Shown here: piece after piece, positions 24,670 through 48,616 of the stretch
Position numbering within the stretch: position 1 is the first letter of the stretch
Layout: each line of letters begins with the position of its first letter
NCBI GenBank assembly: GCA_050115675.1
Contig: JASFQB010000003.1
Location: 34,673 to 98,672, forward strand
DNA: 64,000 nt
Source: Candidatus Woesebacteria bacterium
Lineage (GTDB): Bacteria; Patescibacteriota; Saccharimonadia; Saccharimonadales; EFPC-124
Direction: 5' to 3'
Made by a program: the position numbers and the translations under genes
The notes under the pieces: generated by a model
Seen by the model: only the letters and a program-made list of their open reading frames with translations
What the model was told of the DNA's origin: nothing
Database searches by the model: none

Positions 24670-24670
24670 A

Positions 24671-26577: not shown

Positions 26578-28440
26578 TTACAGCTTGAGTAAGGCGTAGC
26601 GTTGATCTTCGTACAAAACTTTTAGGTTCTTTTTTAAATTATCAGCTAAATGAGGTCTGTTATTAGAAAGCTGCTTATCAACAATTACATATTGCAGGCC
26701 AATTGCCTTCATTTTTGCTATGTCATCTGGCTCAAAGTCTTTGTACTCGGCATATTCTATAAAGTAGTTTGGTGGAGTGTATCCGCTGTAGCCGTTAAAT
26801 ATATTACGATTATGATACCCTGACCAAAGCACATCCTCTGCCCTAACTACAGGTATGGGCGCGCCAGGATAGTCCTCGTCACCCCTTAAAACTATGATAT
26901 TGTTAATCTCTTTGTGCTCTTTAACATATTTATAAACTTCTGGTATTGTCAAATTAAAGTTAAACGAATTTTCTGCATGCACTGGAACTTGATAAAGAGG
27001 CATCAGTTCAAAAGCTAGCAATGCACACACAGCAATACTAATTAGCTTTTCGCGCTTTTTAAACCACTGTTTTTCATGAACGTAGTAAGCGGCATACGCC
27101 AACAAACAACAAAGAACAAACAAAAACAATACGCTCCAACGACCAACAGCCCTAATAAACGTTAGCTGCGGCAAAAATTTATCAATTAGCAAATATGGCA
27201 ACGGAAGTGCCAGTTGGATACCATCGGCAGCCGACCCATAAGCATAATTACCTTTTATCTTAAGTAAGGGCCCAAGCGACAGCACCAAACCAACAAGTCC
27301 TATAGAAGTCATTGTGATAACCAAGCCAAAACGACGCATAGCCTCTGCACCCTTTTTACGCTTTAGAAATACAAACACCACTAAAGCCGCAGCCAAAACA
27401 TACAAGGTGATACCATGATAAGAAATGCTATCTAAATTATAAGCATTAAGCCCTGGGCCAATATGAAGCCAGCTTGCTATTTTTCCCCACAAAGTGCCAC
27501 TGTTTGGCAAAAAATAATCTAACAAGCTAGACGAATAAAGGGTTTGATCCTTCAGGCTAAATGCCGCCCCAGTCTCTTCTGAAAACCTCATATATTGCAA
27601 GGCCAAAGGCAAAATTGCAATAATCGCCGCCAGCATTGCGGCAGCCACCGCCATAACCTGCTTTAGCTTGGCAATTTTAAATATCAAAAATCCTAGTAGC
27701 AAAATACCAATCGCAACACCAACAAAAACCATATTGTACCAAGACGCATAAAACTGCAAAGTCAGTGTTGCAAATAGTCCAACTAAATAACCCTTTTTGC
27801 GTGTATCAAAATACTTAAATATCAGCAAAAAGGCCAACGGCAAATAGAATATGCTCCAGTTTTGCAAATGAAAAATTGCAGCCATTCTAAACGGCGCAAA
27901 AGCAAAGATTAAACCCGCAGCAGTAGACACCAATTCACTACCTCGGCTCAAATACTTGGCAAGCAAATACATAAAAAAGCCACACAAAAATACACTAACT
28001 ATCGTCCAAACATTGTAGGCAAATATAGGATTACTATTTATAAAGTGCAAAGGCAACGTAAGAACTCCGGCAGAAAGCTGAGTTTCTGAGTACAACATAG
28101 TATCTTTGTTTGGAAAGTATATATTGGCATCTACGTAATTTGGGCAATTGTCTCCTAAAATGCAGTTGTGATTACGGCTCAATGTCCATGCGTTAAACAT
28201 CGCATCTCCGCCTTCACTCCAAGAATCAATGCGAACTATCATTGGCCAGAAAAAAACAATGGCTGCAAGCAGTATTACAACCGTTCCTATCCAGTTTTGC
28301 TTGAAGAATGCGCAAACAATAGCAAAAGTTTTTTTAAGCCACGCGTTAACGTTTTGACCTCGTGCAGAGATTTTTGCATTTTTAGATTGTTTTTTATCAC
28401 CCACTGTAAGCTTTTTTAGCAACGCTCTTGCTCTTTTCAT
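26578..28440 (-). CDS. Large polytopic membrane protein, probable GT-C-type glycosyltransferase (GtrC-like role)
   Basis: 620 aa, many TM helices plus a C-terminal soluble domain. Directly upstream of a GT2 (GtrB-like) gene and across from a GtrA gene. Confidence 0.6.
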   Translation of the reverse strand: MKRARALLKKLTVGDKKQSKNAKISARGQNVNAWLKKTFAIVCAFFKQNWIGTVVILLAAIVFFWPMIVRIDSWSEGGDAMFNAWTLSRNHNCILGDNCPNYVDANIYFPNKDTMLYSETQLSAGVLTLPLHFINSNPIFAYNVWTIVSVFLCGFFMYLLAKYLSRGSELVSTAAGLIFAFAPFRMAAIFHLQNWSIFYLPLAFLLIFKYFDTRKKGYLVGLFATLTLQFYASWYNMVFVGVAIGILLLGFLIFKIAKLKQVMAVAAAMLAAIIAILPLALQYMRFSEETGAAFSLKDQTLYSSSLLDYFLPNSGTLWGKIASWLHIGPGLNAYNLDSISYHGITLYVLAAALVVFVFLKRKKGAEAMRRFGLVITMTSIGLVGLVLSLGPLLKIKGNYAYGSAADGIQLALPLPYLLIDKFLPQLTFIRAVGRWSVLFLFVLCCLLAYAAYYVHEKQWFKKREKLISIAVCALLAFELMPLYQVPVHAENSFNFNLTIPEVYKYVKEHKEINNIIVLRGDEDYPGAPIPVVRAEDVLWSGYHNRNIFNGYSGYTPPNYFIEYAEYKDFEPDDIAKMKAIGLQYVIVDKQLSNNRPHLADNLKKNLKVLYEDQRYALLKL

Positions 28441-28447
28441 GCCAAAT

Positions 28448-29167
28448 TTACCTGTTTATCGTGTTATATCTAACAATCTCTACAATCGCCTTTACGCCAT
28501 CTTTAAAGCCAATTTTTTTACCCTCTTCTTTGCTGCGACCATAGTAGCTAATGCCAATTTCGTATACCTTTGCTCCGCTTCGGGCAACTCGCGCAGTAAC
28601 TTCTGGCTCAAAACCAAACCTTTTAGCCTGCAATTTGTCTGCAATTTTGCGAATCAAATCACCCCTAAACACTTTGTAGCACGTTTCCATATCTGTAAGA
28701 TTTAGCCCAGTAAACATGTTTGACAGCATTGTTAAAAACTTATTTGCAACCTGATTGCGATAGTAAATTATACGATGCGGTTCGCCACCAATAAATCGTG
28801 ATCCATAAACTACGTCTGCATGTCCTCGTTCAATAGGGTAAAGAAGCCTTGTGTACTCTTGTGGGTCATATTCTAAATCAGCATCCTGAATAACAACTAC
28901 GTCGCCAGTGCTCTCTTGTATGCCCTTCTTTAAAGCAGCACCCTTTCCTTGGTTTACCTCTTGAAATACTAATTTAATGTCTTTATTTTTTTGAGCAAGT
29001 TTTTTTAGTATATCGCGGGTACCATCTTTTGAACCATCATCAACAATAATAATTTCTTTCTTAGTTGAGCCCAAGTCTACATCCTCTACCTCTTGCAAGA
29101 TAGTCTCGATAGTGTCTTTTTCGTTGTAGCATGGCATAATAATTGACAGCTTTTTAGCTTTGGCCAT
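28448..29167 (-). CDS. Glycosyltransferase family 2 (polyprenol-phosphate sugar synthase, GtrB/Dpm1-like)
   Basis: 239 aa. [28 protein letters not shown] (DxD). Confidence 0.88.
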
Positions 29168-29251
29168 AGATTTTACCTCTCATCACAGTCATTATAAGTT
29201 AAATTTATGCTAACATAAGCATAGCAAGAAGTATAGTTTAAAGAGAGATAA

Positions 29252-29680
29252 ATGAAACAATTACTGCGAGTTGATTTTGTACGCTTTTGCATTGTGGGTG
29301 CAACTGGCTTTGCGGCCAATTTTATAATTCTAACCATGCTTTTTAAAGTTTTTGGCTGGCCAATTTTTATTGCGCAGCTTGTTGCAAGTGAAATATCACT
29401 ATTTAGCAATTTTATTCTGCACGACCGCTGGACTTATAAGCATAAAACTGTTACAAAAACCATTTCACAACTGCTTATACAGTTTCATATTTCATCGTGG
29501 ATGGCAATTCTAGGTAGCGCCCTACTTGTAGCATTTATGGTAGATAGATTAAATTGGAGCTACGTAATAGCTTTAATGGTAAGCTCTGCTATTGCTATGA
29601 TTTGGAATTTTAGCTGGACAAAATTTGTTATTTGGAGAAACGAGCAAGAGGCATTAAAAGGAGAAAATCATGAAAATTAG
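29252..29680 (+). CDS. GtrA-family membrane protein
   Basis: 142 aa. VRFCIVGATGFAANFIIL... and HDRWTY motif, four TM helices. Confidence 0.85.
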   Translation: MKQLLRVDFVRFCIVGATGFAANFIILTMLFKVFGWPIFIAQLVASEISLFSNFILHDRWTYKHKTVTKTISQLLIQFHISSWMAILGSALLVAFMVDRLNWSYVIALMVSSAIAMIWNFSWTKFVIWRNEQEALKGENHEN

Positions 29681-30989
29681 CGTCATCGGCACAGGATACG
29701 TTGGACTTGTTACTGGCACTTGCTTTGCAGAAGCTGGAAATCAAGTAACCTGCATGGACATCGACAAAGATAAGGTTAAAAGGATGGAAAACGGCCATAT
29801 ACCTATTTACGAACCCGGCCTAGAAGAAATGTTCAAACGCAACATTCGAGATAAAAAATTACACTTTACCTCTAGTTTGACAGACGCCATTAAAGGTGCT
29901 GAACTAATATTTTTATCACTACCAACCCCTCCCGGCGAAGATGGCTCAGCAGATTTATCTTACGTATTAGAGGTAGCCGAACAACTCGGAAAAACGATCA
30001 AAGAGTTTGTGGTTATCGTAAACAAAAGCACAGTACCAATTGAAACCACAGAAAAAATTCGCAAAACAGTCGCAAAAAATGCAAAGGTAGATTTTACTGT
30101 CGCCTCTAATCCCGAGTTCTTGAAGGAGGGCGTTGCCGTTGCTGACTTTATGAAACCTGATCGAATCGTAATTGGGACATCGTCGCAAAAAGTTCGAAAC
30201 ATAATGACAAAGTTGTACGAACCCTTTGTAGATGACACACGCAACATCCTATTTATGGACGAGCGCTCGGCTGAAATGACCAAATACGCTGCAAATTCAT
30301 TTTTAGCAACAAAAATCTCCTTTATGAACGAGATTGCAAATCTATGTGAAAAAGCCGGAGCAGATGTTGATCAAGTACGAATAGGCATTGGTGCTGACGT
30401 CAGAATCGGTAAACACTTTCTTTATGCAGGTATTGGTTATGGCGGCAGCTGTTTTCCTAAAGACGTAAAAGCCCTACACTACACCGCCTCAAGCTACGAT
30501 AGCTCAACATGCATATTAAAAGCCGTCATGGAAACAAACAAAGAACAAAAACAGCGTCTTGCACAAAAAACACTCCACTACTTTAAGGGCGACGTTGCCG
30601 GCAAAACCTTTGCACTATGGGGATTGGCCTTTAAGCCCTGCACCGACGACATTCGCGAAGCCCCAGCGCTAGAAATTATAAAAGAATTGACCAGTAACGG
30701 AGCAACGGTCATAACATACGACCCAGAAGCAGCAGAAAATGTTAAAAAATTCTATGGCGATAACAAACGGCTAAAATTTGCCAACAACGAATATGACGCA
30801 CTAAAAAATGCCGATGCTCTGCTAATAGCTACTGATTGGTCAGAATTTAAAAATCCAGATTTTGCACAAATTAAAAAATTACTCAAAAACCCAGTTATCT
30901 TTGACGGCCGCAACATATTCGACCTAAAAACAATGAAGTCAGAAGGTTTTTATTACGAAAGCATAGGAAGGAAAATCATAAATGGATAA
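29670..30989 (+). CDS. ugd: UDP-glucose 6-dehydrogenase
   Basis: 439 aa. MKISVIGTGYVGLVTG, catalytic GGSCFPKD, full-length match to the Ugd layout. Confidence 0.93.
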   Translation: MKISVIGTGYVGLVTGTCFAEAGNQVTCMDIDKDKVKRMENGHIPIYEPGLEEMFKRNIRDKKLHFTSSLTDAIKGAELIFLSLPTPPGEDGSADLSYVLEVAEQLGKTIKEFVVIVNKSTVPIETTEKIRKTVAKNAKVDFTVASNPEFLKEGVAVADFMKPDRIVIGTSSQKVRNIMTKLYEPFVDDTRNILFMDERSAEMTKYAANSFLATKISFMNEIANLCEKAGADVDQVRIGIGADVRIGKHFLYAGIGYGGSCFPKDVKALHYTASSYDSSTCILKAVMETNKEQKQRLAQKTLHYFKGDVAGKTFALWGLAFKPCTDDIREAPALEIIKELTSNGATVITYDPEAAENVKKFYGDNKRLKFANNEYDALKNADALLIATDWSEFKNPDFAQIKKLLKNPVIFDGRNIFDLKTMKSEGFYYESIGRKIING

Positions 30990-31935
30990 GCCAACTATTT
31001 TAATTGCAGGAGGCGCTGGCTTTTTGGGATCGCACCTTTGCGACGCCTATACCGCAAAAGACTATAACGTCATAGCTGTGGATAACCTGTGTACTGGTGC
31101 GCACCAAAATATCGAGCATCTAGTTGGCAACCCAAACTTTACATTTGTAAAACACGATATTTGTCAACCACTACCTCAAGAGGTAACTAGCAAAGATATA
31201 AAAATAGTTGCCAACTTAGCTTCTCCCGCCAGCCCCCCTCATTATCAAAGACTGTCTATGGAAACTTTAAACGTTGGTTCAATTGGCGTGCAAAATTTAC
31301 TTGAACTTACCCGGCAAAAAAATGCTCGCTTTATGCAAGCATCTACAAGCGAAGTTTACGGCGACCCAGAAGTTCACCCACAACCTGAAAGCTATCGCGG
31401 CTGCGTTAACTCGTACGGACCACGCAGCATGTACGACGAATCAAAACGCTTTGCCGAAGCTATGATTTACTCTTACAAGACAAAATATAACCTAAACACT
31501 GGAATAATCCGCATCTTCAACACCTACGGCCCGCGGATGGACAAAGACGATGGTCGAGTTGTATCTAACTTTGTTGTACAGGCGCTACAAAACAAGCCTC
31601 TAACCGTGTACGGCAAAGGCGACCAGACCAGAAGCTTCTGCTATGTTAGCGACTTAATAGCAGGCATGGTTGCAATGATGGACTCTAGCGAAGAAGGCCC
31701 AATAAACCTCGGCAATCCTGACGAATTTACAATTATAGAGCTCGCAAATATCATAAACGATCTTGTAGGCAATAAGTCAGAGATAATTTACAAGCCACTT
31801 CCGGGCGACGACCCAACCCAACGAAAACCAATAATCGACAGAGCCAAAACAAAGCTCAATTGGCAACCAAGCGTAAAATTAAAAGACGGCCTAAAGCCGA
31901 CTATTGAGTATTTTGCAAAAGAAATTAGCAAATAA
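30982..31935 (+). CDS. uxs: UDP-glucuronate decarboxylase (UDP-xylose synthase)
   Basis: 317 aa. GGAGFLGSH, YDESKRFAE (YxxxK), RIFNTYGPRM...DGRVVSNF, typical of the UXS subgroup of SDRs. Confidence 0.88.
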   Translation: MDKPTILIAGGAGFLGSHLCDAYTAKDYNVIAVDNLCTGAHQNIEHLVGNPNFTFVKHDICQPLPQEVTSKDIKIVANLASPASPPHYQRLSMETLNVGSIGVQNLLELTRQKNARFMQASTSEVYGDPEVHPQPESYRGCVNSYGPRSMYDESKRFAEAMIYSYKTKYNLNTGIIRIFNTYGPRMDKDDGRVVSNFVVQALQNKPLTVYGKGDQTRSFCYVSDLIAGMVAMMDSSEEGPINLGNPDEFTIIELANIINDLVGNKSEIIYKPLPGDDPTQRKPIIDRAKTKLNWQPSVKLKDGLKPTIEYFAKEISK

Positions 31936-31991: not shown

Positions 31992-32372
31992 CTAAAACTT
32001 TAGGACTTGCCTATTGCCGCTGCCAATCTGCACGCCGCTTACACCGTCCATCGTTACGTTGCATGTGCGAGTTGCTACCTCCATTCTAGCGCTACCGGGC
32101 GAACCAACCACTGTTACCTCATCGGCCCTTTTAACAATAGCAACTCGCGAGCCCGCAGGTGGCTCCGCGCTAAGCGCAGCCGGGTCGATATATCCTTCGT
32201 CTTCAGGATTCAGAAAAACAATCCTTGCTCCTTCTCGGGCAATAATCCTGCCTGTTCGCAGGTTGACCATTGAAGCACCATCAAAGTGAATGCGTGGCCA
32301 TTCGACCTCAATAAACGCAACGCTACTACCGATAACGATTTTGTCGTTAACCACGATGTAGTGCGCAAACAT
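31992..32372 (-). CDS. Hypothetical 126-aa protein (GC-richer orphan)
   Basis: ORF with stop-poor antisense strand (two antisense ORFs of 88-91 aa in the track). Beta-rich sequence, C-terminus CNVTMDGVSGVQIGSGNRQVLKF. Confidence 0.6.
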   Translation of the reverse strand: MFAHYIVVNDKIVIGSSVAFIEVEWPRIHFDGASMVNLRTGRIIAREGARIVFLNPEDEGYIDPAALSAEPPAGSRVAIVKRADEVTVVGSPGSARMEVATRTCNVTMDGVSGVQIGSGNRQVLKF

Positions 32373-33669: not shown

Positions 33670-35580
33670 TTACAAGAAGGTAACCGCTTTCCCAAGGACT
33701 CCTTTAAAATACTCTTCTGAGGCGGGATCAGTTATTACATAATACTTGCGGCCATCTTTTGCATATTCTTCTGAGCATTTTTTGACAGCCTCAACGACCT
33801 CTTGCTGCTCCGTTTTACTTCCAGTGCCATACGTCATTAAACCATAGATTTTACTACTATAAGCCAGGGAGCCACCAACAACATCAAGATTTTGACTTAC
33901 ATTACCAGCCCAACTTGGCAATAGTTGACTACCAAAAACCCTTTTTTCACTAAAATCATAATGCAAAACAACCACGTTATAACTACGAATCCTATTAGTC
34001 GTACCCAGGTCTACCATTTTTTGAATATCTTCTCTGTAAAATGCCGGCCCGCCAGTCATTGCTCGTTCCGACATCAACGGATTACCACTAATAGCCAACA
34101 ATAAAAATATTAGCAAACCAAATACCGTAGGGGCAAAAAGCCATTTAACCATTTCTTTTAGGCGTGTTTTTGAGATTATTTTTATAAACAACACAGCAAA
34201 AATTACCAGCAAAACTAGTTCAAGCATATAAGAAGTTTTTATAGCATAATAACGGACCTCACCCACCATAAATAAATGAACAGCTGCTAGCCCACCAACT
34301 AATAAAAACGACGGCAAAAGCACGCATACCATAAAACGTCGTAAGCTATCTGATACACGCCCGATTACAACAACGTAAATCAGCAACAGCAACCCCGCAA
34401 GCACAAAAGCGCCATTAAACACGGTTATACTTCCGCCGTTGGTAAACTGATTTATTTCGTAATACTTAAAGTGAAAGTACAGGGGTACCAGAAAAGACAA
34501 AAAACCAACATAAACCGGTAAATATTTTTTATCTAAAAGCTTTTTGACATCACCAAGCTTTTTAAAATTATAAATTAAATACAATCCAGGAATTGCCACA
34601 AACAATGGCAGCGCCGTTGGGCCCCAGCTCATAGCCACAGAAAAACCAAAAGCCATATACGCCACAGCAAACCAGCAATCTTTAGACGTTTTTAGTTTTA
34701 AGCCGCTCAAAAACAATAAACTCGCAACAAAAACCGCGCATATGTAATAGTAATTTAAAAAGCCTTGCTGTGCATATAGAAATAGATAAAATACACTAAG
34801 ACTTGGCCCAATCAGCAAAGACAGCATAATATTATTGTTGTTTTTTGCCTTTATCTTTACCAACTCAAACAATTTTTGACCCGCATAGTACAAAACATAA
34901 GCCAAAATGAATCCCCAAACAATATACTGAGCAATAAACAATCTTGCACAGCCCGCCCAATCTAAATCAGATTGATGAACATTAAATGCATCCATAAAAA
35001 CTGTTTGGGCAATATGAAATCCTTTAGGATAATATCCGTTTTTGCCGTAAGTTAAATGTTGATTATGATGCATTTCACTCAACATAGAATTATGGGCAGA
35101 TCCATCCGGGCTTTGCAACGCCCCAAAAGAAGTTATGCGCGCAAGATCATCTCCCCAAATTGTAAATAGCATAAACGGCACCACAAAAAACAATGCTGTC
35201 ATAATCGCACCAAGATCTTTGCCATTTAAAAATCTTGCAGACTTATCACGGCTATTACCCAAAAAAGCCATTGTTAAAAGTATTAAGAATGTCGATATAA
35301 GACTAAGTATTTTAAAATCGCTTTGGGGAGCAACAAAAAACTGCACAGCTGCCGCCACTTGAAAAAAGCTAAAAGCTATCAAGATAGCAAAAATAAATCT
35401 AGCAAAAATACTCTGAATTACGCGCGGATACGGCAAACCGTATGCCAAAACAAGTATCACGCCAATTACAAATAAAAATCTTACATCAAAAAAGTATAGC
35501 ACCTGCCCCGCAAGCAGCGTCGCCAAACACGCCAATATGCATTTGTCTTTGGCGATCGCCTTAAGATTATTGGCTAGCAT
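33670..35580 (-). CDS. Large polytopic membrane protein, paralogue 1 of a tandem pair
   Basis: About 636 aa (ATG 35580 preferred over the TTG at 35601). At least 12 TM helices and a C-terminal soluble domain. Shares motifs IFARF, LQSPD, YPKGFH, GFLNYYY, PAFY, LHYD and YYVITD with the next gene. Confidence 0.75.
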   Translation of the reverse strand: MLANNLKAIAKDKCILACLATLLAGQVLYFFDVRFLFVIGVILVLAYGLPYPRVIQSIFARFIFAILIAFSFFQVAAAVQFFVAPQSDFKILSLISTFLILLTMAFLGNSRDKSARFLNGKDLGAIMTALFFVVPFMLFTIWGDDLARITSFGALQSPDGSAHNSMLSEMHHNQHLTYGKNGYYPKGFHIAQTVFMDAFNVHQSDLDWAGCARLFIAQYIVWGFILAYVLYYAGQKLFELVKIKAKNNNNIMLSLLIGPSLSVFYLFLYAQQGFLNYYYICAVFVASLLFLSGLKLKTSKDCWFAVAYMAFGFSVAMSWGPTALPLFVAIPGLYLIYNFKKLGDVKKLLDKKYLPVYVGFLSFLVPLYFHFKYYEINQFTNGGSITVFNGAFVLAGLLLLIYVVVIGRVSDSLRRFMVCVLLPSFLLVGGLAAVHLFMVGEVRYYAIKTSYMLELVLLVIFAVLFIKIISKTRLKEMVKWLFAPTVFGLLIFLLLAISGNPLMSERAMTGGPAFYREDIQKMVDLGTTNRIRSYNVVVLHYDFSEKRVFGSQLLPSWAGNVSQNLDVVGGSLAYSSKIYGLMTYGTGSKTEQQEVVEAVKKCSEEYAKDGRKYYVITDPASEEYFKGVLGKAVTFL

Positions 35581-37510
35581 ATTCAATTCCGTCCTCTCCA
35601 ATTATACTTTTTAGACTGCCGAGTGATTTTTTGTCTGTAACTACATAAAATTTATCGCCTGCTTGTTGAGCCAATTGTACACACTGCTTAATATTTAGCA
35701 CTAAATCTTTTTGCTCTTGCTCGCTAAAAGTTCCATATGCTAAGTTGCTAAATACTTGGTCATAGCATTTATCAGCCTGCGCACCCTCTGTTGTACGAGG
35801 ATACTTAATGTTTACTATTGTCTGAGCTAAAAATGCATGCGCATAAATAGTCTTTTTATCATTATCATAATGCAAAGTTACAGCATTGTTATTGTTTATT
35901 AGATCGCTCTTGCCAAGTTTTGCCAGCAAATATGCATCTTGGTCGTAAAAAGCTGGCTTGCCCGTATCTGAAGCATCTCTAAAAAATCCTCGTAAATCGT
36001 CAAATGGTTTTGGTCCTGCTCCAATAAGCAAAATGGTTAATGCCATCGGCACAAATGCAAGCAATGGCAGGTATACTTTTTTGTATATCTTTGACTCAAC
36101 AAAGGCTCCAAATAACAATGCGACCCCAAGCAATATTACTATAGCTTCTACCAACAAAGAGACTTTTATTGAAAAATAAATCGCCTGTCCCAGCGAAAAC
36201 TGCTGCATAAATATTACTAACGCTGCAAATAGCCCTAATGGCAACATGACATTTAAAATATTGCGCTTAAAATCAATTGCAACCTTTTTCTGTAACATCA
36301 CTAAGAGACATACTGCAAATCCAGCAATAAGAACAAACGTATGCAAAATAGTTAGGTCGCCAGGTGAATTTATATAAGAAACGCTATCTTTTGTAAAGAT
36401 TATTTGCGTTACAACAGGCAAAGGCTGAATTGCCACTACAAACAATAAAGCCGGGTTGCGAAAACACCATTCTTTAACATTATTTAACTTAGGCATTTTA
36501 TTTGGCCAGATGGTCAAAATTAAAATTGCAATTACAATAGGCACAACTAAAGGCCAACTTTGCGATGAACCATAAAATAGCATCATAGCTGCAAATAGCA
36601 TAAAACCAACATCAGCACTCTGCTCTGATTTTTTTTGAAAACAATACCGATCGATAAATATCAATCCCAGCAAAAATGCAGCAATTGTATAATAGTAGTT
36701 TAAAAAACCATGCGCAATATATGGCCACAAAAACAAAGTGCAAATCGGCAATCCAATTGCTACCGCCAAGCTTATAACACCCACAAGCGACAACTGCTTA
36801 CTAGTTTGACGCTCAAGCCAAGTCGTACATAAATATACACTCGACACAGCCAACAATGAGCCCATTAGCAAATACTGGCCAAAAAACATAACAAGATTTA
36901 CCTGCCAGCTAAAGTCTGCTTGCTTGCCAAAAAAGGCGTCTTGCAAAAAGCCTACGCCTAAATGAAAACCCTTAGGATAGCCCGTCGTATCTAAGTGTTG
37001 ATCGTAGCTTCTAGAATTTATGTTCTCAAAGTGATGTGCTGCATCTGGCGACTGTAGTCCAGCAATCTCTACAATTTTGTACACGCTGTCTTGTCCGCAA
37101 ATAATCGCGCCAAAGGGCAACAAAAACATCACAACAACTACCAGTCCAGCAATATCTTGCCTGGTTATTAGTTGCATTTTTTTCTTTTGACTGCCATAAA
37201 AAAGCAATATCAAATAGCCAAACACTGAATACAATACGGCAACTGCCATAAAATCGCTCCATGGCAATATTATTTGTTGTATTGCAGCAGCCAACTGCAG
37301 CAACGCCAAAGACAATACAACTTGCGTAACAAAACGAGCAAACATACTACCAAGCACTTTTGGCGCAGGCAAATACATTACGGACAAAACGACTACAACA
37401 ACTGGCAAAAAAACTTTAATACCAAAAACATAAAGTAAAAGAGAGCCAAAAATAGCAGCGGCAAACTTGACGTTTAATCCACCCCAAATTCTCTGACCCA
37501 AATTTAGCAT
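35567..37510 (-). CDS. Large polytopic membrane protein, paralogue 2 of a tandem pair
   Basis: 647 aa. Same architecture and motifs (MFARF, LQSPD, YPKGFH, GFLNYYY, KPAFY, LHYD, FYVVTD). TAATG overlap with the upstream GT gene. Confidence 0.75.
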   Translation of the reverse strand: MLNLGQRIWGGLNVKFAAAIFGSLLLYVFGIKVFLPVVVVVLSVMYLPAPKVLGSMFARFVTQVVLSLALLQLAAAIQQIILPWSDFMAVAVLYSVFGYLILLFYGSQKKKMQLITRQDIAGLVVVVMFLLPFGAIICGQDSVYKIVEIAGLQSPDAAHHFENINSRSYDQHLDTTGYPKGFHLGVGFLQDAFFGKQADFSWQVNLVMFFGQYLLMGSLLAVSSVYLCTTWLERQTSKQLSLVGVISLAVAIGLPICTLFLWPYIAHGFLNYYYTIAAFLLGLIFIDRYCFQKKSEQSADVGFMLFAAMMLFYGSSQSWPLVVPIVIAILILTIWPNKMPKLNNVKEWCFRNPALLFVVAIQPLPVVTQIIFTKDSVSYINSPGDLTILHTFVLIAGFAVCLLVMLQKKVAIDFKRNILNVMLPLGLFAALVIFMQQFSLGQAIYFSIKVSLLVEAIVILLGVALLFGAFVESKIYKKVYLPLLAFVPMALTILLIGAGPKPFDDLRGFFRDASDTGKPAFYDQDAYLLAKLGKSDLINNNNAVTLHYDNDKKTIYAHAFLAQTIVNIKYPRTTEGAQADKCYDQVFSNLAYGTFSEQEQKDLVLNIKQCVQLAQQAGDKFYVVTDKKSLGSLKSIIGEDGIEYASQ

Positions 37511-38811
37511 TATATATCCTTTAAAATACTCTTAACCTGATTAGCAGACTCATCCCAAGTAAACTGCTTATACTCTTTAACTTTTTTACGCGTAGCGCTT
37601 AGCTCTGACGGCTTAATTAGCTTTTGAATTACGGCCAAGCATTCATCTGACGAAGCAGGCGAGAAATGCTCTACTAAGCCCTCGGCAATCTCTACCATAC
37701 TGCTTGTATTGGCACAGGCGCAAGGAACCCCTCTGCCCAAGCTCTCTGCAATTGGAATACCCCAGCCCTCATGAAAACTTGGCAAAACAGTAAACATGCA
37801 GTGGTCGTACAACCACGATAGTTCTTCGTCGCTCGTATTATGCAAAAGTATAAAACATTCTTTTACCTCTGGATCTTCTGTCATTAATGTGCGCGTTGCG
37901 TCTGACATCCATCCACGTCTACCTACAATAACCAGCTTTGGTAATTTTATGCCGCGTGCTTTTGCTAATTTGTAGACATAGTAAAACAGCATGTGGTTCT
38001 TTTTTGCTTCAAGTGTTCCAATGCATATTATATAATCACCACCTTTTAGGCCAGACTCTTTAAAGGCAGGATCAATCGGGCTCATTGGTTTAGCTACATT
38101 TAGATCGTCGCCTAGCCTAAACGATTCGATTTTGGGAACATTTAAATCGCTCTCTTTTAGCCACTGAATCAGTTCTTTTTTAGTGTTTTTAGAAACAGTT
38201 AAAACAAGGTCGCACACCGGCACAATTTGGCTATTGTATGTTGTTGGGCTAACTTTAACTTGCTCGTAAAACTGCGGACAGACAGTTGTGCCAATGTCGT
38301 GAATAATCTGAACCAACTTAACACCTTTTTGGTGCATGCCAACCAAATACGCCGTAAAGTTAGAGTCCCACCATTCGCCCCACGGAATAAACAGCTTGTC
38401 CCCCTTTTCAAATTCAACACGCTTTACATCTGCAAAATGACTTTGCCTTAAATTATTCTCTACACGATTTGCAAGTTCTGGGTTGATTTTTGCACCATGG
38501 CGTAAAGCTATCTTAGCAACCTTAACTACTCCACGACGCAACAATGTTTTTTTTAAAACCACTATGTCCTCTGATGGCTTTTGACCATAGCGCTTATAAA
38601 TAACCCCATGACCCCTATTAGCCATAGATCTCTCTAGATCAACCTCACACAGCGATTGAAGCTCTTTAACCCAGGATACAAAAACCACATTGCTGTCTTT
38701 TTCAAAACGAACTGCTAATTCGTGCATCACGCGTGGAATACCCGCCAATTTACCAGCCCAGTGCACCAGTTGCGTTACATCAAAGTAAATTTTTGGATTA
38801 TTGTCTGACAT
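37510..38811 (-). CDS. Glycosyltransferase family 4 (WbdA-like)
   Basis: 433 aa. C-terminal PSFHEGWGIPIAESLGRGVP. Confidence 0.85.
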   Translation of the reverse strand: MSDNNPKIYFDVTQLVHWAGKLAGIPRVMHELAVRFEKDSNVVFVSWVKELQSLCEVDLERSMANRGHGVIYKRYGQKPSEDIVVLKKTLLRRGVVKVAKIALRHGAKINPELANRVENNLRQSHFADVKRVEFEKGDKLFIPWGEWWDSNFTAYLVGMHQKGVKLVQIIHDIGTTVCPQFYEQVKVSPTTYNSQIVPVCDLVLTVSKNTKKELIQWLKESDLNVPKIESFRLGDDLNVAKPMSPIDPAFKESGLKGGDYIICIGTLEAKKNHMLFYYVYKLAKARGIKLPKLVIVGRRGWMSDATRTLMTEDPEVKECFILLHNTSDEELSWLYDHCMFTVLPSFHEGWGIPIAESLGRGVPCACANTSSMVEIAEGLVEHFSPASSDECLAVIQKLIKPSELSATRKKVKEYKQFTWDESANQVKSILKDI

Positions 38812-39862: not shown

Positions 39863-41041
39863 CTATTTTTTGACACTATAATCAACTTTAACTGGCGGCA
39901 ATACAGCAGTTGTAGACCTGTCTTGCCGTTTTACAGTAAAGCTATCAGCTTTAACAAACCAGTCAAGAGTGTTTGCAACATCGTCAACCAAAGTCAACAT
40001 TACATAGTAGTTTCCGTCGTTAAACACATTAAGCACGTTCCACTCAAATGTGATCGTTGAGCCAACTTCTGGACTTTGCACATCATCCTTGTGGATCATG
40101 CGATTATTCATGGCTGTGATTTCTGCACCGTCTTCGCCCATAACATGTAGTCCGTAAATTACCCGGTCAACTGGTTTTTTAACCTTTGCCTTTACGGTAA
40201 TTATAATATCGTCTTTTTGTACCTTGGTTTTAACATCGGTTACATATACATCGCCATTGCCAAATCTTTTGCCGTCGCCTTTTTTTGCGTGATCGCTAGC
40301 ATTATCCATAAATAGCATGGCATATTCTTGAGCAATTTCTTGCGGTTCGCCAATCATTTGAATTTCGCTCTTATCAATTAGCATCGCACGCGTACAATAT
40401 TCGCGAACAGCACCCATATCGTGAGTTACAAACACAACGGTTTTTTTATTTGCTTTGAGTTTTTTAAAATATTCAAAACACTTACGTTGAAAATCAGCAT
40501 CACCAACAGCCAAAACTTCATCAACAAGTAAAATATCTGCTTCTGCACGAGTAGCCAAAGAAAACGCAAGCCTAACTTGCATGCCAGAAGAATAATTTTT
40601 AAGTTTTTGGTCCATAAACCTTTCTAGCTCGGCAAATTTAACAATGTCATCGTATTGTGCATCTATCTCTTTTTTAGAAAAACCAAGCAACGCACCATTT
40701 AAATATACGTTTTCGCGACCAGTAAGCTCTGGATTAAAACCAACGCCAAGCTCGATAAATGGAACAAGCTTTCCTTTTGTCTTAACCTTGCCATGCGAAG
40801 GTTGATAAATTCCTGCTAAAATCTTTAGCAAGGTACTTTTACCACTACCATTACGGCCAACGATTCCAAAAAATTCGCCCTTCTTTACCTCAAAATCAAT
40901 TCCATGCAAAGCATGCTGCATCTCTGACTTTCCGCCTTCGCGAAACATACTTGTAAAAATAGACTTTACCGAACGCTTTTTTTCGTGCGGCAAAACAAAG
41001 TTTTTTGATACACCGTCTACCTGTATTGCATTGTCCGACAT
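39863..41041 (-). CDS. wzt: Polysaccharide ABC exporter ATP-binding protein with C-terminal glycan-binding-type domain
   Basis: 392 aa. Walker A GRNGSGKST, signature YSSGMQVRL, Walker B ILLVDE, plus about 150 extra beta-rich C-terminal residues as in Wzt_C. Confidence 0.9.
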   Translation of the reverse strand: MSDNAIQVDGVSKNFVLPHEKKRSVKSIFTSMFREGGKSEMQHALHGIDFEVKKGEFFGIVGRNGSGKSTLLKILAGIYQPSHGKVKTKGKLVPFIELGVGFNPELTGRENVYLNGALLGFSKKEIDAQYDDIVKFAELERFMDQKLKNYSSGMQVRLAFSLATRAEADILLVDEVLAVGDADFQRKCFEYFKKLKANKKTVVFVTHDMGAVREYCTRAMLIDKSEIQMIGEPQEIAQEYAMLFMDNASDHAKKGDGKRFGNGDVYVTDVKTKVQKDDIIITVKAKVKKPVDRVIYGLHVMGEDGAEITAMNNRMIHKDDVQSPEVGSTITFEWNVLNVFNDGNYYVMLTLVDDVANTLDWFVKADSFTVKRQDRSTTAVLPPVKVDYSVKK

Positions 41042-41925
41042 TAAATATCCTCCGCAAAATATGGCGAACGTTTTTTAAAGTAGTAAGCCGCTCCTAGTGC
41101 CATCAACAATGTGGCAATAATTGGAACAAATCTTACCCATTCGTTTCCATAAAGTTTATCAATTGTAACAGTTTGATCAGTAATTAGCAGATATCGTAAA
41201 TCTTGTATAATTTGTGCAACAGGATTTAAAATAAGTATCTTGGCGACTCCAACAGGAATAAGATCTAGTGGATAAATAATCGGCGTAGCATAAAAAGCGC
41301 CCTGCATTATAACTTCCCATATATAGTTAACGTCTCTAAATTGCACAAACAATGCACTTAAAAGAAAGGCCATTGCTATAGAAATTACAAATAACTCTAT
41401 TATAAGCATCGGTACAAATAAAATTGCAGTAGCGTGCGGATCAGCTCCAGTAAATAGCATAAACGCAAACACAACAAGCAAGTTTATAGCCAAATTAATC
41501 AGTGCAGAGAAGGAGCCCGCTAAAACTATGACGTATTTTGGAAAATTGATTTTTCGTAGCACATCTCCGCGCCCTACCACAGAACTAACTCCGCCGTTTG
41601 TGACCTCCGAAAAATAGTTCCAAACAACAATACCCAGCAACAAATAAACAGCAAAGTGAGGCAGGTCACCGCCAAATCGCAAAAACTTTACAAAAACAAA
41701 ATACAAAATTGTAAATAGAGCCAAAGGTCGCAAAAGGGACCAGACATACCCCAATGCCGACCCTTGATAGCGCAGCTTAAAATCGGTAATTACCAATTCG
41801 CGCAACAAGATTATTGAATAGCGATATCGCTGAAAAAAAGTCTTCACGTTGGCCTTATTATAGTATTTGTTTGCGCTTGCAGCAAGAAGGCAAGCCAAGC
41901 AAATTGTTTTACATTGTTTTTTCAA
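41041..41925 (-). CDS. wzm: Polysaccharide ABC exporter permease (ABC-2 type)
   Basis: ELVITDFKLRYQGSALGYVWSLLRPL signature and six TM helices. The listed TTG start overlaps the upstream gene; the true start may be GTG at 41847. Confidence 0.85.
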   Translation of the reverse strand: MKKQCKTICLACLLAASANKYYNKANVKTFFQRYRYSIILLRELVITDFKLRYQGSALGYVWSLLRPLALFTILYFVFVKFLRFGGDLPHFAVYLLLGIVVWNYFSEVTNGGVSSVVGRGDVLRKINFPKYVIVLAGSFSALINLAINLLVVFAFMLFTGADPHATAILFVPMLIIELFVISIAMAFLLSALFVQFRDVNYIWEVIMQGAFYATPIIYPLDLIPVGVAKILILNPVAQIIQDLRYLLITDQTVTIDKLYGNEWVRFVPIIATLLMALGAAYYFKKRSPYFAEDI

Positions 41926-43066
41926 TTTTTAGCAAAATCTTTGCCAGTCCGTCTGCGCTTGCTTGCCAGCTAAATTCTTTTGACTGTTTTTTGCCTCTTG
42001 TTATTAGTGCGTCTTTTTGAGCTTTCGACATCTCTGTTGATTTTTTCATTGCGTTTGCAATAGAATCAACATCTTCAGGGTTGCAAAGTATGCCCGCCTG
42101 CCCAACCACTTCTCTTAAAGAAAGTATATCTGACACAATTGCAGGAGTACCAGCAGTTAAGGCCTCTAGTGCCGGCATGCCAAAGCCTTCATAAAACGAC
42201 GGTAAAACTAGAGCCTCCGCACCGCTTAAAAGCTTTGCTAAATCATCATCCGAAACATACGTCCTTGGCTTAACAACCAAGTGCCCTGATTCGTTTGCTG
42301 CATCAACAAGATTAAACACTTCTTGGTTTAGCCAGCCATCACTCCCGACCATAATTAAAGCGTATTCTTTAGGTAGCTTTGCGATTGCTTTAAGTAGACC
42401 TTCTAAGTTTTTACGAGGTTCAATATTGCCAATGTACAAAAAATACTTTTTGCCACCTAGTTTGTATTTTTTGGTTACTTTTTTTATTTCTTCTTCTGGA
42501 TATTTTTTGTACAAATTTGCGTCTGCGCCATTATAAACCACCAAGATTCGGTCATTTTTTACTTCAAAATATTTGGCAATTTCTTGTTTAGCACTTTTAG
42601 AAACAGTAATTACATAGTCTGTCTGCTTAATGTACCTTGGCACATTTTTAGCTAACGATTTTTGGTTGTCTGGCTGCACGTACTGTGGGTATACAGCAAA
42701 GCAAACGTCATGAATATATGTTAACGACTTTGAGCGTTTAGTCAGTGGCCAATTAAAAAAATTGCCAAATAAATATACTCCGCGACCAAGCAAGAGATCC
42801 ATTGGTGGCAACAATCCGCGGCGTCCAAGGCCGTTCATAATTCTAAATTTCATAGGAATTGGCTTGCGCGTACAGCTTTCTAGCCCCTTCCAGCGATCAA
42901 GTAGTCTCATTCGATTTCCAGGCGCAACTAAAACTATTTCAAACTTTTTTTGAACGTCCTGATTAGCTGCAAGCGCCGCCACCAAACCAGCCAAGGCATG
43001 TGGAATACCACCAATTTGCCTGTCTACAAGTGGTACTGCTTCTATAAATAGTTTTGTCTTCTTCAT
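41909..43066 (-). CDS. Glycosyltransferase family 4
   Basis: 385 aa. PSFYEGFGMPALEALTAGTPAIV. Confidence 0.85.
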   Translation of the reverse strand: MKKTKLFIEAVPLVDRQIGGIPHALAGLVAALAANQDVQKKFEIVLVAPGNRMRLLDRWKGLESCTRKPIPMKFRIMNGLGRRGLLPPMDLLLGRGVYLFGNFFNWPLTKRSKSLTYIHDVCFAVYPQYVQPDNQKSLAKNVPRYIKQTDYVITVSKSAKQEIAKYFEVKNDRILVVYNGADANLYKKYPEEEIKKVTKKYKLGGKKYFLYIGNIEPRKNLEGLLKAIAKLPKEYALIMVGSDGWLNQEVFNLVDAANESGHLVVKPRTYVSDDDLAKLLSGAEALVLPSFYEGFGMPALEALTAGTPAIVSDILSLREVVGQAGILCNPEDVDSIANAMKKSTEMSKAQKDALITRGKKQSKEFSWQASADGLAKILLKIEKTM

Positions 43067-43200: not shown

Positions 43201-45351
43201 CTACACAGGCAGCCTAAGCGTTGCCTTTACGTTGCCAAGGATTGCCCTTGTGTTCATGACCCAGTTTTCCAGATCGCACACGTCCGACGGCAGTTCTTCA
43301 TCCGCAACATCGATAGCACAAAGGGCTTCCCAGTGCGCGTCCGTCAGTTGCAGTTTGTAGACTCTCAGCAACTCGTTGGCTTCGTCGCGCAAATCTAGCG
43401 CATGCTCGCGAAGCAACTCCGGGTCAGCCTCTCTGCTAATTTCAACACCAGCAAATCTGCTGACAATCTCGTACCCCTCTCTAGTCTTGACTGCGTAGCG
43501 CATGGCCACGTCATTCGGAATAACCGTACCTTCAATTGTGGCACGCTCATAACCAGCCCTGCTCGTCCAGTGGCGAATGGTACCCATAACCGAGTATCCT
43601 AGGGTAACGCCAAACTGGTCGTTGCCAAACAGGGTTCGGGTTGGCCTGTCGACATATTCCAGCGACTGCACCATTGCAAGCAGCTCGACAAAGCCCAAGT
43701 GCAACAGTTCACCACAGTCAACAACCATGATGTCCTGCAGCTTTGGCAGTTGCTCTCCAACCGCCCGAAGGACGGTCATAAAGCGCATCACCACATGTCG
43801 GATCTCTTTGCCAGAGTACCCCCACTGTCTGCACCATGAATCGTAGTCGTTGCCGCCAATGCGATAGGCGGTTCCAGCATCGTTCGGCTTTCCGAACTGC
43901 CGCAGAGCTTCCGCGACAATGTTGTATCCAGTAAGATGGTCCGACCCCTGAACTACATTGGGATCGGCATACTTCTGCAGCTTCTTGCCGGTAATGCCAT
44001 ACAGCTCACCGATGCTCGCAACAATACAAACTACAAACAGCAGGTCAACAACATCAAGGCCTTTAGCGGTAGCGATGATCTCGCCCCACCTACAACCAAC
44101 CGGCAAACGCTCAACGCGCTCACCAAGATCGGTCAGACCAAGCCGCCCACCAACACTACTAACCAATCCGCGAGTAATGAGCCTTGTAAGAACATCCTGG
44201 TAAGCCTCTTGATCAATTTTACCAATCAACTCCAACTCTCTGGCGTCAACGCCAATCTTGGCCGTCGACAGAGCCAAAAGCTCCAGGTTACCGCTCAAAA
44301 CAAACTCGGGATCAACTGTAGAGAGGCTGTGCAAATCCAAATAACAGTCGGTCACAATGTGGACCTCGCCGTCGGTCGCACGCCCGTCTACGCGCCCAGC
44401 CATCTGCAAAATGGTGTTGTTATCAAGCGCGCTGCGCCTGAGCTGACGAACGCCACCGCTAATAAACTCTTTGTACTGAGCGTCAACGATGATTACGGTA
44501 TCAAGTCCTCCAATGTTAAGACTAGAGGCCCCGGCGGCCGTCATAAAAAGCACAAACGGACGAGGAGCGTTGCCTTCGATGTAACTGCGCAGCTTCTCTG
44601 CAGACTCGCCACCGTGGTAAAAACCCGCGCTCACACCGTGCTGTCCGTCGCACCAAGTGGCAAGCCTTTCGGCCTCCTCTCTGGTCGGAACAAAAACAGC
44701 AACTCCTCGCTGCCGAGCAGCGATCTCTGGCAGGTGCTCGTCCAGAACCCTTTCTACATCCGAAAAACGGTGGCAAAGCACCTTGGCCCGGCGAGTAGGA
44801 TCGTAAGCCGAACAACTGATAACCTGACGAGCTTCAAGATACCGACTATACGAGTCCGGATTAACCGTTGCCGACATCCAAACAAACGTGCAGCCAGCCC
44901 GCTTAAGCAAAGCCATGGCAAGCTCAAGATGCTCGGAAGTCTGGTGGATCTCATCGATTACCACCAAATCCTCCACACCAATACTGCCAGACTTTGCCCA
45001 CTTTACTGCAACACCAGGAGTAATAACGATCACGTTGTGTCGATCCACCTTGGTATTGCGGTGCTCTTGCGTCACGATACCAATCGAGAGGCTCCGCCCC
45101 AGCACATCCAGGCAAATCTGCCTAATTGCAGCGGATTTACCAGTGCCGGCGCCAGCCACAACACCAAAACCGCCGTCAGACAGCAGGCCAGTAGCGCAGC
45201 TCAGATCAAACCCGCATTCACGCTGAATTAGCGTTTCAGGCAAAGAATCGTTTGCAATCAAAGCCGACAGGTTCACACATGTACTACGAGTAGGAGCAAT
45301 AACCACAACTCGCTTAAAAACCAGCATGTCACACCCTTCAATAGGTGCCAT
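43201..45351 (-). CDS. DEAH/RHA-family (HrpA/HrpB-like) SF2 helicase
   Basis: 716 aa. GAGTGKS, DEIH, SAT, TAAGASSLNIGGLD, QMAGRVDGR in order. Downstream region resembles HA2/ratchet (LTDLGERVERLP). Start could instead be the second ATG (45327), which has GAAGGG upstream. Confidence 0.85.
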   Translation of the reverse strand: MAPIEGCDMLVFKRVVVIAPTRSTCVNLSALIANDSLPETLIQRECGFDLSCATGLLSDGGFGVVAGAGTGKSAAIRQICLDVLGRSLSIGIVTQEHRNTKVDRHNVIVITPGVAVKWAKSGSIGVEDLVVIDEIHQTSEHLELAMALLKRAGCTFVWMSATVNPDSYSRYLEARQVISCSAYDPTRRAKVLCHRFSDVERVLDEHLPEIAARQRGVAVFVPTREEAERLATWCDGQHGVSAGFYHGGESAEKLRSYIEGNAPRPFVLFMTAAGASSLNIGGLDTVIIVDAQYKEFISGGVRQLRRSALDNNTILQMAGRVDGRATDGEVHIVTDCYLDLHSLSTVDPEFVLSGNLELLALSTAKIGVDARELELIGKIDQEAYQDVLTRLITRGLVSSVGGRLGLTDLGERVERLPVGCRWGEIIATAKGLDVVDLLFVVCIVASIGELYGITGKKLQKYADPNVVQGSDHLTGYNIVAEALRQFGKPNDAGTAYRIGGNDYDSWCRQWGYSGKEIRHVVMRFMTVLRAVGEQLPKLQDIMVVDCGELLHLGFVELLAMVQSLEYVDRPTRTLFGNDQFGVTLGYSVMGTIRHWTSRAGYERATIEGTVIPNDVAMRYAVKTREGYEIVSRFAGVEISREADPELLREHALDLRDEANELLRVYKLQLTDAHWEALCAIDVADEELPSDVCDLENWVMNTRAILGNVKATLRLPV

Positions 45352-47374: not shown

Positions 47375-47375
47375 A

Positions 47376-48296: not shown

Positions 48297-48433
48297 AACT
48301 TATTATATAATATCACAAATTGTGATTTTTGCAGATAATGCAGCCTGTTTTTTGCAAAAATGTTGCATTATTAACTAAAATATTGTAGAGTATACGAAGG
48401 CTATTCGCCTTTTACCCTTTTGGAGGGATTAAC

Positions 48434-48616
48434 TTGCCTAGCAAGCTTTACAGCACCCGCCGCAACGGCGATGTTGTTACTGTCGAAATTCCCGAACTCG
48501 GAACAATTGACCTTCGAGGAGGAGAACGATACGACTGGAACGTGCGAGTCTTTCTTACCCCCGACTACATTGGTGATCTGAACGACATCGATCCGGTTCC
48601 CGCAGGGACGCCCTGA
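48434..48616 (+). CDS. 60-aa ORF in the same frame as the downstream CPBP gene, ended by TGA
   Basis: TTG start behind strong SD GGAGGG (48422..48427). Translation MPSKLYSTRRNGDVVTVEIPELGTIDLRGGERYDWNVRVFLTPDYIGDLNDIDPVPAGTP. May be the N-terminus of a disrupted longer gene. Confidence 0.4.
   Translation: MPSKLYSTRRNGDVVTVEIPELGTIDLRGGERYDWNVRVFLTPDYIGDLNDIDPVPAGTP

Follow-up and report, generated by a model that had tools for sequence, protein, structure and literature searches.

A tandem pair of anciently duplicated membrane proteins in a Patescibacteria glycan-export operon: putative members of an unclassified GT-C glycosyltransferase family

We analysed a stretch of 64,000 nucleotides (nt) from Candidatus Woesebacteria bacterium (contig JASFQB010000003.1, positions 34,673–98,672; hereafter, the window), in which two adjacent genes, A and B, encode large polytopic membrane proteins. 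Both belong to a minus-strand operon that runs from position 43066 down to 32483, with genes that overlap or are separated by gaps of ≤28 nt, in the order family 4 glycosyltransferase (GT4, 385 amino acids (aa)), Wzm permease and Wzt ATPase of an ATP-binding cassette (ABC) exporter (the latter with a Wzt_C domain), FkbM-family methyltransferase, GT4 (433 aa), B, A, family 2 glycosyltransferase (GT2, 242 aa) and DUF2304 protein (145 aa; Table 1). A Pfam scan of the neighbours bore out the gene neighbourhood described in an initial reading of this DNA made from its letters and open reading frames (ORFs) (the sequence-only reading), which had placed the pair between a GT2 and a GT4 gene of a Wzm/Wzt operon and had suggested that the two proteins are novel GT-C-like extracytoplasmic glycosyltransferases or polymerases.

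Table 1. Coordinates of A, B, their predicted parts and neighbouring genes in the window (TM, transmembrane)
Feature	Position	Strand	Evidence and remarks
Paralogue B, B-type putative GT-C glycosyltransferase	35567-37510	-	647 aa, ATG start; linked to the cassette
B, long outer loop	~36908-37096	-	AlphaFold2/DSSP
B, D156, candidate catalytic Asp	37043-37045 (codon)	-	with H160
B, C-terminal outer domain	~35570-36019	-	holds conserved Cys pair C582/C610
Paralogue A, A-type putative GT-C glycosyltransferase	33670-35601	-	643 aa from TTG 35601
A, long outer loop	34960-35148	-	AlphaFold2/DSSP
A, D166, candidate catalytic Asp	35104-35106 (codon)	-	with H170
A, C-terminal outer domain	33673-34092	-	
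GT4, 385 aa, first operon gene	41909-43066	-	Pfam Glycos_transf_1 4.2e-30
Wzm, ABC-2 permease	41041-41925	-	Pfam ABC2_membrane 2.3e-14
Wzt, ABC-transporter ATPase with C-terminal carbohydrate-binding domain	39863-41041	-	Pfam ABC_tran 2.2e-22, Wzt_C 1.6e-10
FkbM-family methyltransferase, 343 aa	38815-39846	-	Pfam Methyltransf_21 7.6e-18; TIGR01444 8.3e-27; kept in related cassettes
GT4, 433 aa, directly upstream of B	37510-38811	-	Pfam Glycos_transf_1; putative cytoplasmic backbone builder
GT2, 242 aa	32913-33641	-	Pfam Glycos_transf_2 1.4e-23; no TM segment; 28 nt downstream of A
DUF2304 small membrane protein, 145 aa	32483-32920	-	Pfam DUF2304 8.9e-07, above cut-off; overlaps GT2 gene by 8 nt
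GtrA-family small membrane protein, 142 aa	29252-29680	+	Pfam GtrA_DPMS_TM 2.1e-21; in adjacent second module
620-aa membrane protein	26578-28440	-	weak PTPS_related match
GT2 of second module, 239 aa	28448-29167	-	
UDP-glucose dehydrogenase	29670-30989	+	
UDP-glucuronate-decarboxylase-like epimerase/dehydratase	30982-31935	+	
PMT_2/GT39-annotated GT-C protein, 678 aa	21957-23993	-	family with invariant RDP motif and C-terminal Cys pair

A and B are minus-strand ORFs and, as first read, adjacent, overlapping and of near-equal size. The stop codon of B is a TAA at 35569–35567, as read at the junction. The start of A is more likely the ATG at 35580, which yields 636 aa, than the TTG, because this ATG is preceded by GGAGAGGA and coincides with the start of NCBI protein P0001 (636 aa); the genes overlap by 14 nt from the ATG (35 nt from the TTG). 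BLASTP aligned 629 residues of the two proteins with 27% identity, 48% positives and 24 gaps (E = 8e-62). Judged from the sequences, the paralogy is real, extends over the full length and lies far beyond chance. All seven short motifs that had been listed as shared in the same order (SIFARF/SMFARF, LQSPD, YPKGFH, GFLNYYY, GPAFY/KPAFY, VLHYD/TLHYD and YYVITD/FYVVTD, A/B) are in register in this alignment, and the motif misalignment that had been named in advance as speaking against the pair was not seen.

AlphaFold2 models of both proteins were built with family alignments and compared with the PDB using Foldseek, and helices were assigned with DSSP. The predicted local distance difference test (pLDDT) score and predicted template modelling (pTM) score were 92.3 and 0.93 for A and 94.7 and 0.95 for B. 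The first match of A was the arabinosyltransferase AftA (8IF8; E = 5.6e-4, probability 1.00, TM-scores 0.39/0.41, 583 columns), followed by AglB (probability 0.97), the C-mannosyltransferase DPY19 (0.95) and ArnT (0.94 and 0.87). AftA likewise ranked first for B (probability 1.00, E = 3.1e-3), ahead of yeast Stt3 (0.99), EmbB (0.96) and Pmt1 (0.69). The AftA alignments covered 583–600 columns, nearly the full length of both models. GT-C enzymes were the only high-probability matches for either model, whereas every non-GT-C match (major facilitator superfamily and ABC proteins, pyrophosphatases and others) had a probability of ≤0.21 and a TM-score of approximately 0.1; the assignment to a transporter that had been named beforehand as evidence to the contrary was therefore not seen.

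The two-part build described in the sequence-only reading stands, with its 'at least 12' TM helices refined to 15 and its C-terminal domain of roughly 120 aa refined to approximately 140 aa, comprising about five short strands and five or six helices. Lysine and arginine residues, counted per loop over 146 sequences, averaged 1.0–2.7 in the even-numbered short loops and 0–0.9 in the odd-numbered ones; by the positive-inside rule, this pattern predicts an N-in, C-out topology with the 63-residue TM5–TM6 loop and the C-terminal domain outside. The proteins thus combine a polytopic membrane domain that has a conserved helix core with a first long outer loop (residues 152–214 in A) that carries two short helices (153–162 and 165–180 in A; 142–152 and 155–170 in B) and a conserved acidic residue with a predicted catalytic role, as expected of GT-C enzymes.

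This acidic residue, anticipated in the first extracytoplasmic loop by the sequence-only reading, is D166 in A and D156 in B. It lies at the junction of the two loop helices and is invariant (146 of 146 sequences), and the histidine at i+4 (H170 in A; H160 in B) is found in 144 of the 146. Nearly all invariant residues face outward, and A and B both retain every one of them. Those at the outer face that are invariant or near-invariant in the core family as well as in its second tier of distant relatives are D166, H170, Y191, P192, H196, G280-F281, W326, Y451, K455 and a C-terminal Cys pair (A numbering); the Cys pair fits an extracytoplasmic location of the domain. The first Cys of the pair is present in 106 of 110 core members, and B keeps both; A has a tyrosine at this position (Y581, codon 33859–33861) and has probably lost a disulfide. 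Among positions fixed within but differing between the A and B clades we found only N/H558, and no clear specificity signature. Taken with the two structural models, the predicted topology and the linkage to a GT2–DUF2304 gene pair, the invariant loop Asp supports the identification of A and B as GT-C-fold membrane glycosyltransferases acting outside the cytoplasm.

Neither protein matched a Pfam or NCBIfam model above threshold, and no consistent or above-cut-off family from these databases emerged among the 40 members of a first alignment and ten second-tier relatives. Sub-threshold matches (DUF3792, TIGR04086, DUF6336, VCA0040-like, LrgB and others) were rejected, as they vary from member to member and resemble noise from hydrophobic composition. 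Searches of PDB sequences with 40- and 146-sequence profiles matched only helical segments of PACSIN F-BAR and the RxLR effector PSR2 to the C-terminal domain, and these matches are spurious. Thus, the view that the pair belongs to no named family holds for Pfam, NCBIfam and PDB sequence and profile searches alike. A word-indexed search of 5.8 billion clusters returned 39 relatives, none with a Pfam domain and those with a name called 'hypothetical'; the window's own protein carried the label Candidatus Woesebacteria in this search. When 1.84 billion representatives were searched exhaustively with a profile, 327 matches were obtained at E ≤ 1e-3, including 103 at E ≤ 1e-30. The family consists of core proteins of approximately 610–700 aa and the more distant second tier of similar length, and its hosts are mostly Saccharibacteria/Patescibacteria. 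In a survey of GTDB (one genome per species), it occurred in 11 genomes, nine of them labelled Saccharibacteria, Saccharimonadales, Patescibacteria or 'uncultured bacterium'; the other two are metagenome-assembled genomes (MAGs) labelled 'Acidimicrobiaceae' (contig of approximately 50% GC, which may be mis-binned) and Dormibacteraeota (66% GC). The phylogenetic distribution is therefore that of a small family found mostly in Patescibacteria, and we found no report of it in the literature on Saccharibacteria. By sequence criteria, the family is outside every existing sequence-defined GT-C family tested (Pfam PMT, PMT_2, STT3, Arabinose_trans, YfhO, PTPS_related and others; NCBIfam; PDB chains). 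The Wzy_C domain of Wzy/WaaL-type polymerases or ligases was likewise absent from A and B in the Pfam scan.

To place the pair in its genomic context, the window's proteins were compared by tblastn with 20 related loci (L-numbers). Genes that match B better lie in a conserved cassette (L004, L008, L009, L012, L016, L019 and L020) with the order Wzm–Wzt–FkbM–GT4(433)–B–GT2–DUF2304, in some cases with a second GT4 gene before B. Orthologues of the 433-aa GT4 (49–63% identity) hold the same position in 11 loci (L003–L005, L008, L009, L012 and L016–L020). Of the remaining B-type genes, that of L010 is preceded by no more than a partial GT4 match and followed, 6.7 kb downstream, by a GT2–DUF2304 pair, and that of L015 has no other match, its contig ending just past the gene. 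Wherever the downstream flank of a B-type gene is available, GT2–DUF2304 follows directly, except in L010; a GT2 gene is directly downstream of a family gene in L003, L004, L008, L009, L012, L019 and L020, and approximately 575 nt downstream in L005. The genes with a better match to A mostly stand alone, elsewhere in the same genomes (L001, L002/L006, L011, L014 and L018), with no conserved neighbours found among their loci, although A-type genes occupy the cassette position in L005 and L017. In one locus (L002, 9952–17935), a solitary A-type gene is followed directly by a polyprenyl synthetase gene, and genes for type IV pilin and T2SS-F/E lie 3–8 kb beyond. Second-tier relatives also occur in glycan loci (L023, a 237-aa GT2 and then a 121-aa ORF; L021, Wzt, FkbM and GT4).

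Among the loci compared, the tandem B–A arrangement was found only in the window and in L003; six cassettes hold a single copy (L004, L005, L008, L009, L012 and L017), and both types are present at separate sites in at least five other genomes. Each copy in the window is closer to orthologues elsewhere (32–45% identity) than to its neighbour (27%). In a neighbour-joining tree, the core family and the second tier were separated in 100 of 100 bootstraps, and A and B fell into different subclades of 40 and 35 sequences, respectively, the exact memberships of which recurred in 37–38 of 100 replicates; 35 sequences belonged to neither. The separate subclades and the unlinked copies in other genomes indicate that the duplication is old, as the sequence-only reading had supposed from the divergence of the two proteins, and that the tandem arrangement is local. 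Features of its own that mark the family are the ancient division into A and B types, a four-TM N-terminal extension, a D-x3-H motif and the Cys pair of the outer domain.

The genes directly downstream suggest where a donor sugar could come from. The best NCBIfam match of the GT2 is the polyprenyl-phospho-GalNAc synthase PpgS (8.5e-38), and its 130 bits against an equivalog cut-off of 370 indicate the type of enzyme but not the sugar, so the GT2 is no PpgS equivalog; we regard it as a putative polyprenyl-phosphate-sugar synthase of the GacI/PpgS type that would supply the donor for A and B. A short GT2 without TM segments followed by a DUF2304 gene is the arrangement of GacI/GacJ-type (PpgS/Rv3632-type) pairs, and by analogy the DUF2304 protein would be a GacJ/Rv3632-like partner or activator of the GT2. 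A GT2 of this kind is encoded together with the GT-C candidates, as in multi-component (three-component) extracytoplasmic glycosylation systems of the Gtr, GacIJKL or CsbB/GtcA/YfhO type. The FkbM protein is a probable chain-terminating or modifying methylase. The sole nearby candidate for a lipid-sugar flippase is the GtrA protein of the adjacent module, to which we assign a place in the A/B system only tentatively; in L003, a GtrA gene directly follows DUF2304.

Several characterized systems share parts of this arrangement. AftA (GT85) of Mycobacterium tuberculosis places the first arabinofuranose from decaprenyl-phosphate-arabinose on completed galactan; it has two extra N-terminal TM helices, an 11-TM GT-C core and an alpha5/beta5 C-terminal outer domain, and its catalytic Asp128 lies in a first long outer loop of two crossed helices and is stabilised by Arg132, with a further Arg binding phosphate (PMC10265970). 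This galactan is exported by a Wzm/Wzt ABC transporter (PMC13649706). On the basis of secondary structure and topology rather than a three-dimensional overlay, A and B resemble AftA in the extra N-terminal TM helices before the core (TM5–15 in A and B), in the loop Asp with an i+4 partner and in the alpha/beta C-terminal outer domain. They differ from it in having four rather than two extra helices and His rather than Arg at i+4, in the low identity (12%; TM-score 0.33–0.41, no relationship at the level of hidden Markov models (HMMs)) and in the donor route, which in AftA is that of decaprenyl-phosphate-arabinose derived from phosphoribosyl pyrophosphate, as opposed to the GT2 and DUF2304 of the A/B cassette. 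The length of AftA is presumably also similar to that of A and B (approximately 640 aa).

In gene content, the cassette resembles streptococcal systems. In Streptococcus pyogenes, the rhamnan backbone is ABC-exported, the GT2 GacI makes N-acetylglucosamine (GlcNAc)-P-undecaprenol, the polytopic GT-C enzyme GacL adds GlcNAc outside, and GacJ (DUF2304) binds and stimulates GacI, just as its homologue Rv3632 stimulates PpgS (bioRxiv 10.1101/180810). In Streptococcus mutans, two GT-C enzymes of one locus, SccM and SccQ, place glucose at different positions (PMC11754754). The GacI/GacJ/GacL, SccN/SccM and SccP/SccQ systems thus parallel the A/B cassette in the ABC-exported backbone, the GT2 without TM segments, the DUF2304 partner (GacJ) and the polytopic GT-C enzyme at the outer face (GacL, SccM and SccQ being compared by description only). 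However, the host here is a Patescibacterium, and each S. mutans GT-C has its own donor synthase, whereas the A/B cassette has a single GT2. The PpgS/Rv3632/Rv3779 system, which decorates M. tuberculosis arabinogalactan with galactosamine, has the same succession of GT2 (PpgS being the best NCBIfam match of ours) and DUF2304 protein, although the score of our GT2 is far from the equivalog level. Its consumer, Rv3779, we take to be a polytopic GT-C enzyme similar in size to A and B.

Recognition of a GT-C enzyme from structure rather than sequence also has a precedent. The founder of GT136, ORF12 of Citrobacter youngae, is a sequence-orphan GT-C that was recognised from an AlphaFold model and modifies an O-polysaccharide on the periplasmic side after polymerisation (PMC11127046). 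Like A and B it has a C-terminal outer domain, and its functionally important R349/Y350 may be compared with R450/Y451 of A; it differs in having 11 TM helices, a catalytic Asp at TM1, a beta-rich C-terminal domain and a donor that is made by a phosphoribosyl synthase and flipped by a MATE transporter (PMC11127046). The PMT_2/ArnT-like GT-C class (GT39/GT83), represented by a protein of the same island, is likewise polytopic, of similar length and equipped with a C-terminal outer domain with its own Cys pair, but the Asp of its RDP motif, directly after core TM1, has no conserved counterpart in A or B.

We consider it probable that A and B, products of an ancient duplication, belong to an unclassified GT-C family and work as outward-facing transferases of a multi-component glycosylation system. 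The analysis shows the paralogy, the predicted fold with its likeness to GT-C enzymes, the predicted topology, the residue conservation and the gene linkage; catalysis, donor, acceptor and the way in which A and B divide the work are what we infer in the following pathway. A glycan would be assembled on a polyprenyl carrier by the cytoplasmic GT4s, capped or modified by the FkbM methyltransferase and exported by Wzm/Wzt with its carbohydrate-binding domain. The GT2, kept at the membrane and activated by the DUF2304 protein, would make a polyprenyl-monophosphate sugar (probably a hexose or N-acetylhexosamine) that is flipped outward, with the GtrA-family protein as a candidate flippase. At the outer face, A and B would then move the lipid-linked sugar onto the exported glycan, with the invariant Asp, together with the His at i+4, as catalytic base and, where TM14 ends on the outer side, the invariant Tyr/Lys (Y451/K455 in A) as candidates for holding the phosphate. 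It is the conserved adjacency of the GT2 and DUF2304 genes that suggests use of a polyprenyl-phosphate-sugar donor on the non-cytoplasmic face. The sequence-only reading had left room for two different donors; because the operon has only one donor synthase, A and B probably share a donor and would differ in position or acceptor. By analogy with AftA and then Emb, a split in which one enzyme primes and the other extends is equally possible. 

Several observations weigh against this assignment. Searches of Pfam, NCBIfam and PDB chains and hhalign comparisons revealed no link to a GT-C family at the level of sequence: against a 58-sequence profile of the neighbouring PMT_2 protein, hhalign gave 23% probability over the last TM helix and C-terminal domain only, and a forced full-length alignment was collinear but unsupported and did not pair D166 with the Asp of the PMT_2 RDP motif. 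The neighbouring PTPS_related protein (620 aa) and a 616-aa ORF (24671–26521) each scored below 1% probability in hhalign. TM-scores to solved GT-C structures were 0.29–0.41 with large global root-mean-square deviations, so it is Foldseek probability and topology, and no close superposition, that carry the fold assignment. That D166 corresponds to D128 of AftA, and that D166, Y451 and K455 are near one another in space, is suggested by secondary structure and topology only. Two invariant charged residues, R68 and D129, lie at cytoplasmic helix ends, where the proposed role leaves them unexplained. The A-type gene is solitary in most genomes, which makes its link to the GT2 donor indirect, and the Pfam scan of the operon revealed no flippase gene of the GtrA, Wzx or MATE type for a lipid-linked sugar.

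The last point, together with the size and polytopic nature of A and B and stray sub-threshold matches such as those of 2 of 40 members to the undecaprenyl-phosphate translocase-like VCA0040 family, could be taken to mean that the proteins, instead of being enzymes, transport or flip a substrate such as the lipid-linked sugar or form a structural part of the export machinery. We hold this to be very improbable, given the negligible structural similarity to transporters described above, the inconsistency of the stray Pfam matches between members and the gathering of the invariant polar residues at the outer face and in a soluble outer domain instead of along a transmembrane path. That A and B form one heterodimeric enzyme with a single activity, like Pmt1–Pmt2 or EmbA–EmbB, has more in its favour: the 14-nt overlap suggests translational coupling, at least five other genomes contain both types, neither copy has lost an invariant residue, and AftA, Emb and Pmt, GT-C enzymes with solved structures, are dimeric (PMC10265970). 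Yet the types are unlinked in most genomes, where A-type genes have no conserved neighbours, and the six single-copy cassettes named above hold only one of the two, which renders such a heterodimer improbable.

One or both copies might instead use the exported polyprenyl-diphosphate glycan itself as donor. They would then transfer it en bloc to protein, lipid or wall in the manner of PglB, AglB or Stt3, or elongate a polymer processively (first priming, then extending, like AftA followed by Emb), and would not add single sugars as side chains. The high-probability Foldseek matches include AglB and Stt3, the cassette contains no ligase of the LCP or WaaL type, the solitary A-type gene of L002 adjoins a polyprenyl synthase gene and has type IV pilin genes within a few kb, and mycobacteria prime and extend arabinan with several GT-C enzymes and one donor (PMC10265970). 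On the other hand, the near-invariably adjacent GT2–DUF2304 pair requires a GT-C consumer, and single-copy cassettes offer no candidate other than the family protein; the island encodes a Wzy_C protein and a Bac_transf initiating transferase at other places; and the proximity to pilin genes is seen in one locus only. On balance, we regard this alternative as unlikely. Returning to outward-facing transferases that share a lipid-linked sugar, a more far-reaching version is conceivable, although we hold it to be rather doubtful: A and B would represent a CAZy-level GT-C family nearly confined to Saccharibacteria/Patescibacteria, the paralogues of which split one lipid-linked donor between two pathways, the B-type decorating, or priming a side polymer on, a methyl-capped ABC-exported wall glycan and the usually unlinked A-type serving another acceptor (a surface protein, such as type IV pilins, or another wall polymer).

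The operon is part of a glycan biosynthesis island of approximately 40 kb (about 6000–46600). The island includes genes for the Wzy_C protein (6499–7830), the Bac_transf initiating transferase (7912–9345), a further GT2 (13533–14510), a ManC-like nucleotidyltransferase, an LPG_synthase_TM protein, a pyruvyl transferase, three more GT4s and a methyltransferase. A second, separate glycosylation module adjoins the operon (26578–31935) and is kept as a whole block in L017 (GT2 80% identical); this module may deliver a pentose or a uronic-acid-derived sugar. We take the PTPS_related family, which its 620-aa membrane protein weakly matches, to belong to the GT-C clan; with this protein, A, B and the PMT_2 protein, four putative GT-C enzymes are encoded within 16 kb. 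A plus-strand gene pair without a Pfam family (190 aa and 616 aa; 24097–26521) has counterparts of 46% and 62% identity in L003 (11501–13849), where a second partial copy of the 616-aa protein lies inside a gene with an Amidase_2 domain; this hints that the protein may act as a cell-wall hydrolase. Downstream of the operon, a 126-aa ORF (31992–32372, minus strand) has a sub-threshold match to a 22-residue RHIM motif only, which is probably meaningless. Directly upstream, a 716-aa DEAD/Helicase_C protein (43201–45351, minus strand) with a weak nSTAND NTPase match is encoded by DNA with a GC fraction of 0.46–0.47, compared with approximately 0.39; a 431-aa ORF on the opposite strand (43936–45231) is of low complexity and was set aside as probably spurious. 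The island abuts the chromosomal origin region (46895–54191), with jag/KhpB-like and YidC genes followed by dnaA (50274–51746), dnaN and recF, and the sign of the GC skew changes near 48–52 kb.

Together, these data define a new small sequence family of the GT-C fold class; its members come mostly from Patescibacteria and work, on our reading, in a known kind of glycosylation system. The A/B cassette extends the multi-component glycosylation paradigm without overturning it and is in this sense conceptually unsurprising. Its interest lies in the organisms: the surface glycans of Patescibacteria are essentially uncharacterised, and a recent study of Saccharibacteria described their glycosylation processes as 'unexplored'. 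The outcome is a conserved cassette (Wzm/Wzt, FkbM, GT4s, the new GT-C protein and a GacI/GacJ-like pair) and an orphan GT-C family with named candidate catalytic residues. Should the two paralogues indeed divide one donor between two pathways, this would give episymbionts a compact means of diversifying the surface that contacts their hosts. The cassette and the family offer targets for genetics in cultivable Saccharibacteria, and the family is a candidate for a new CAZy family.

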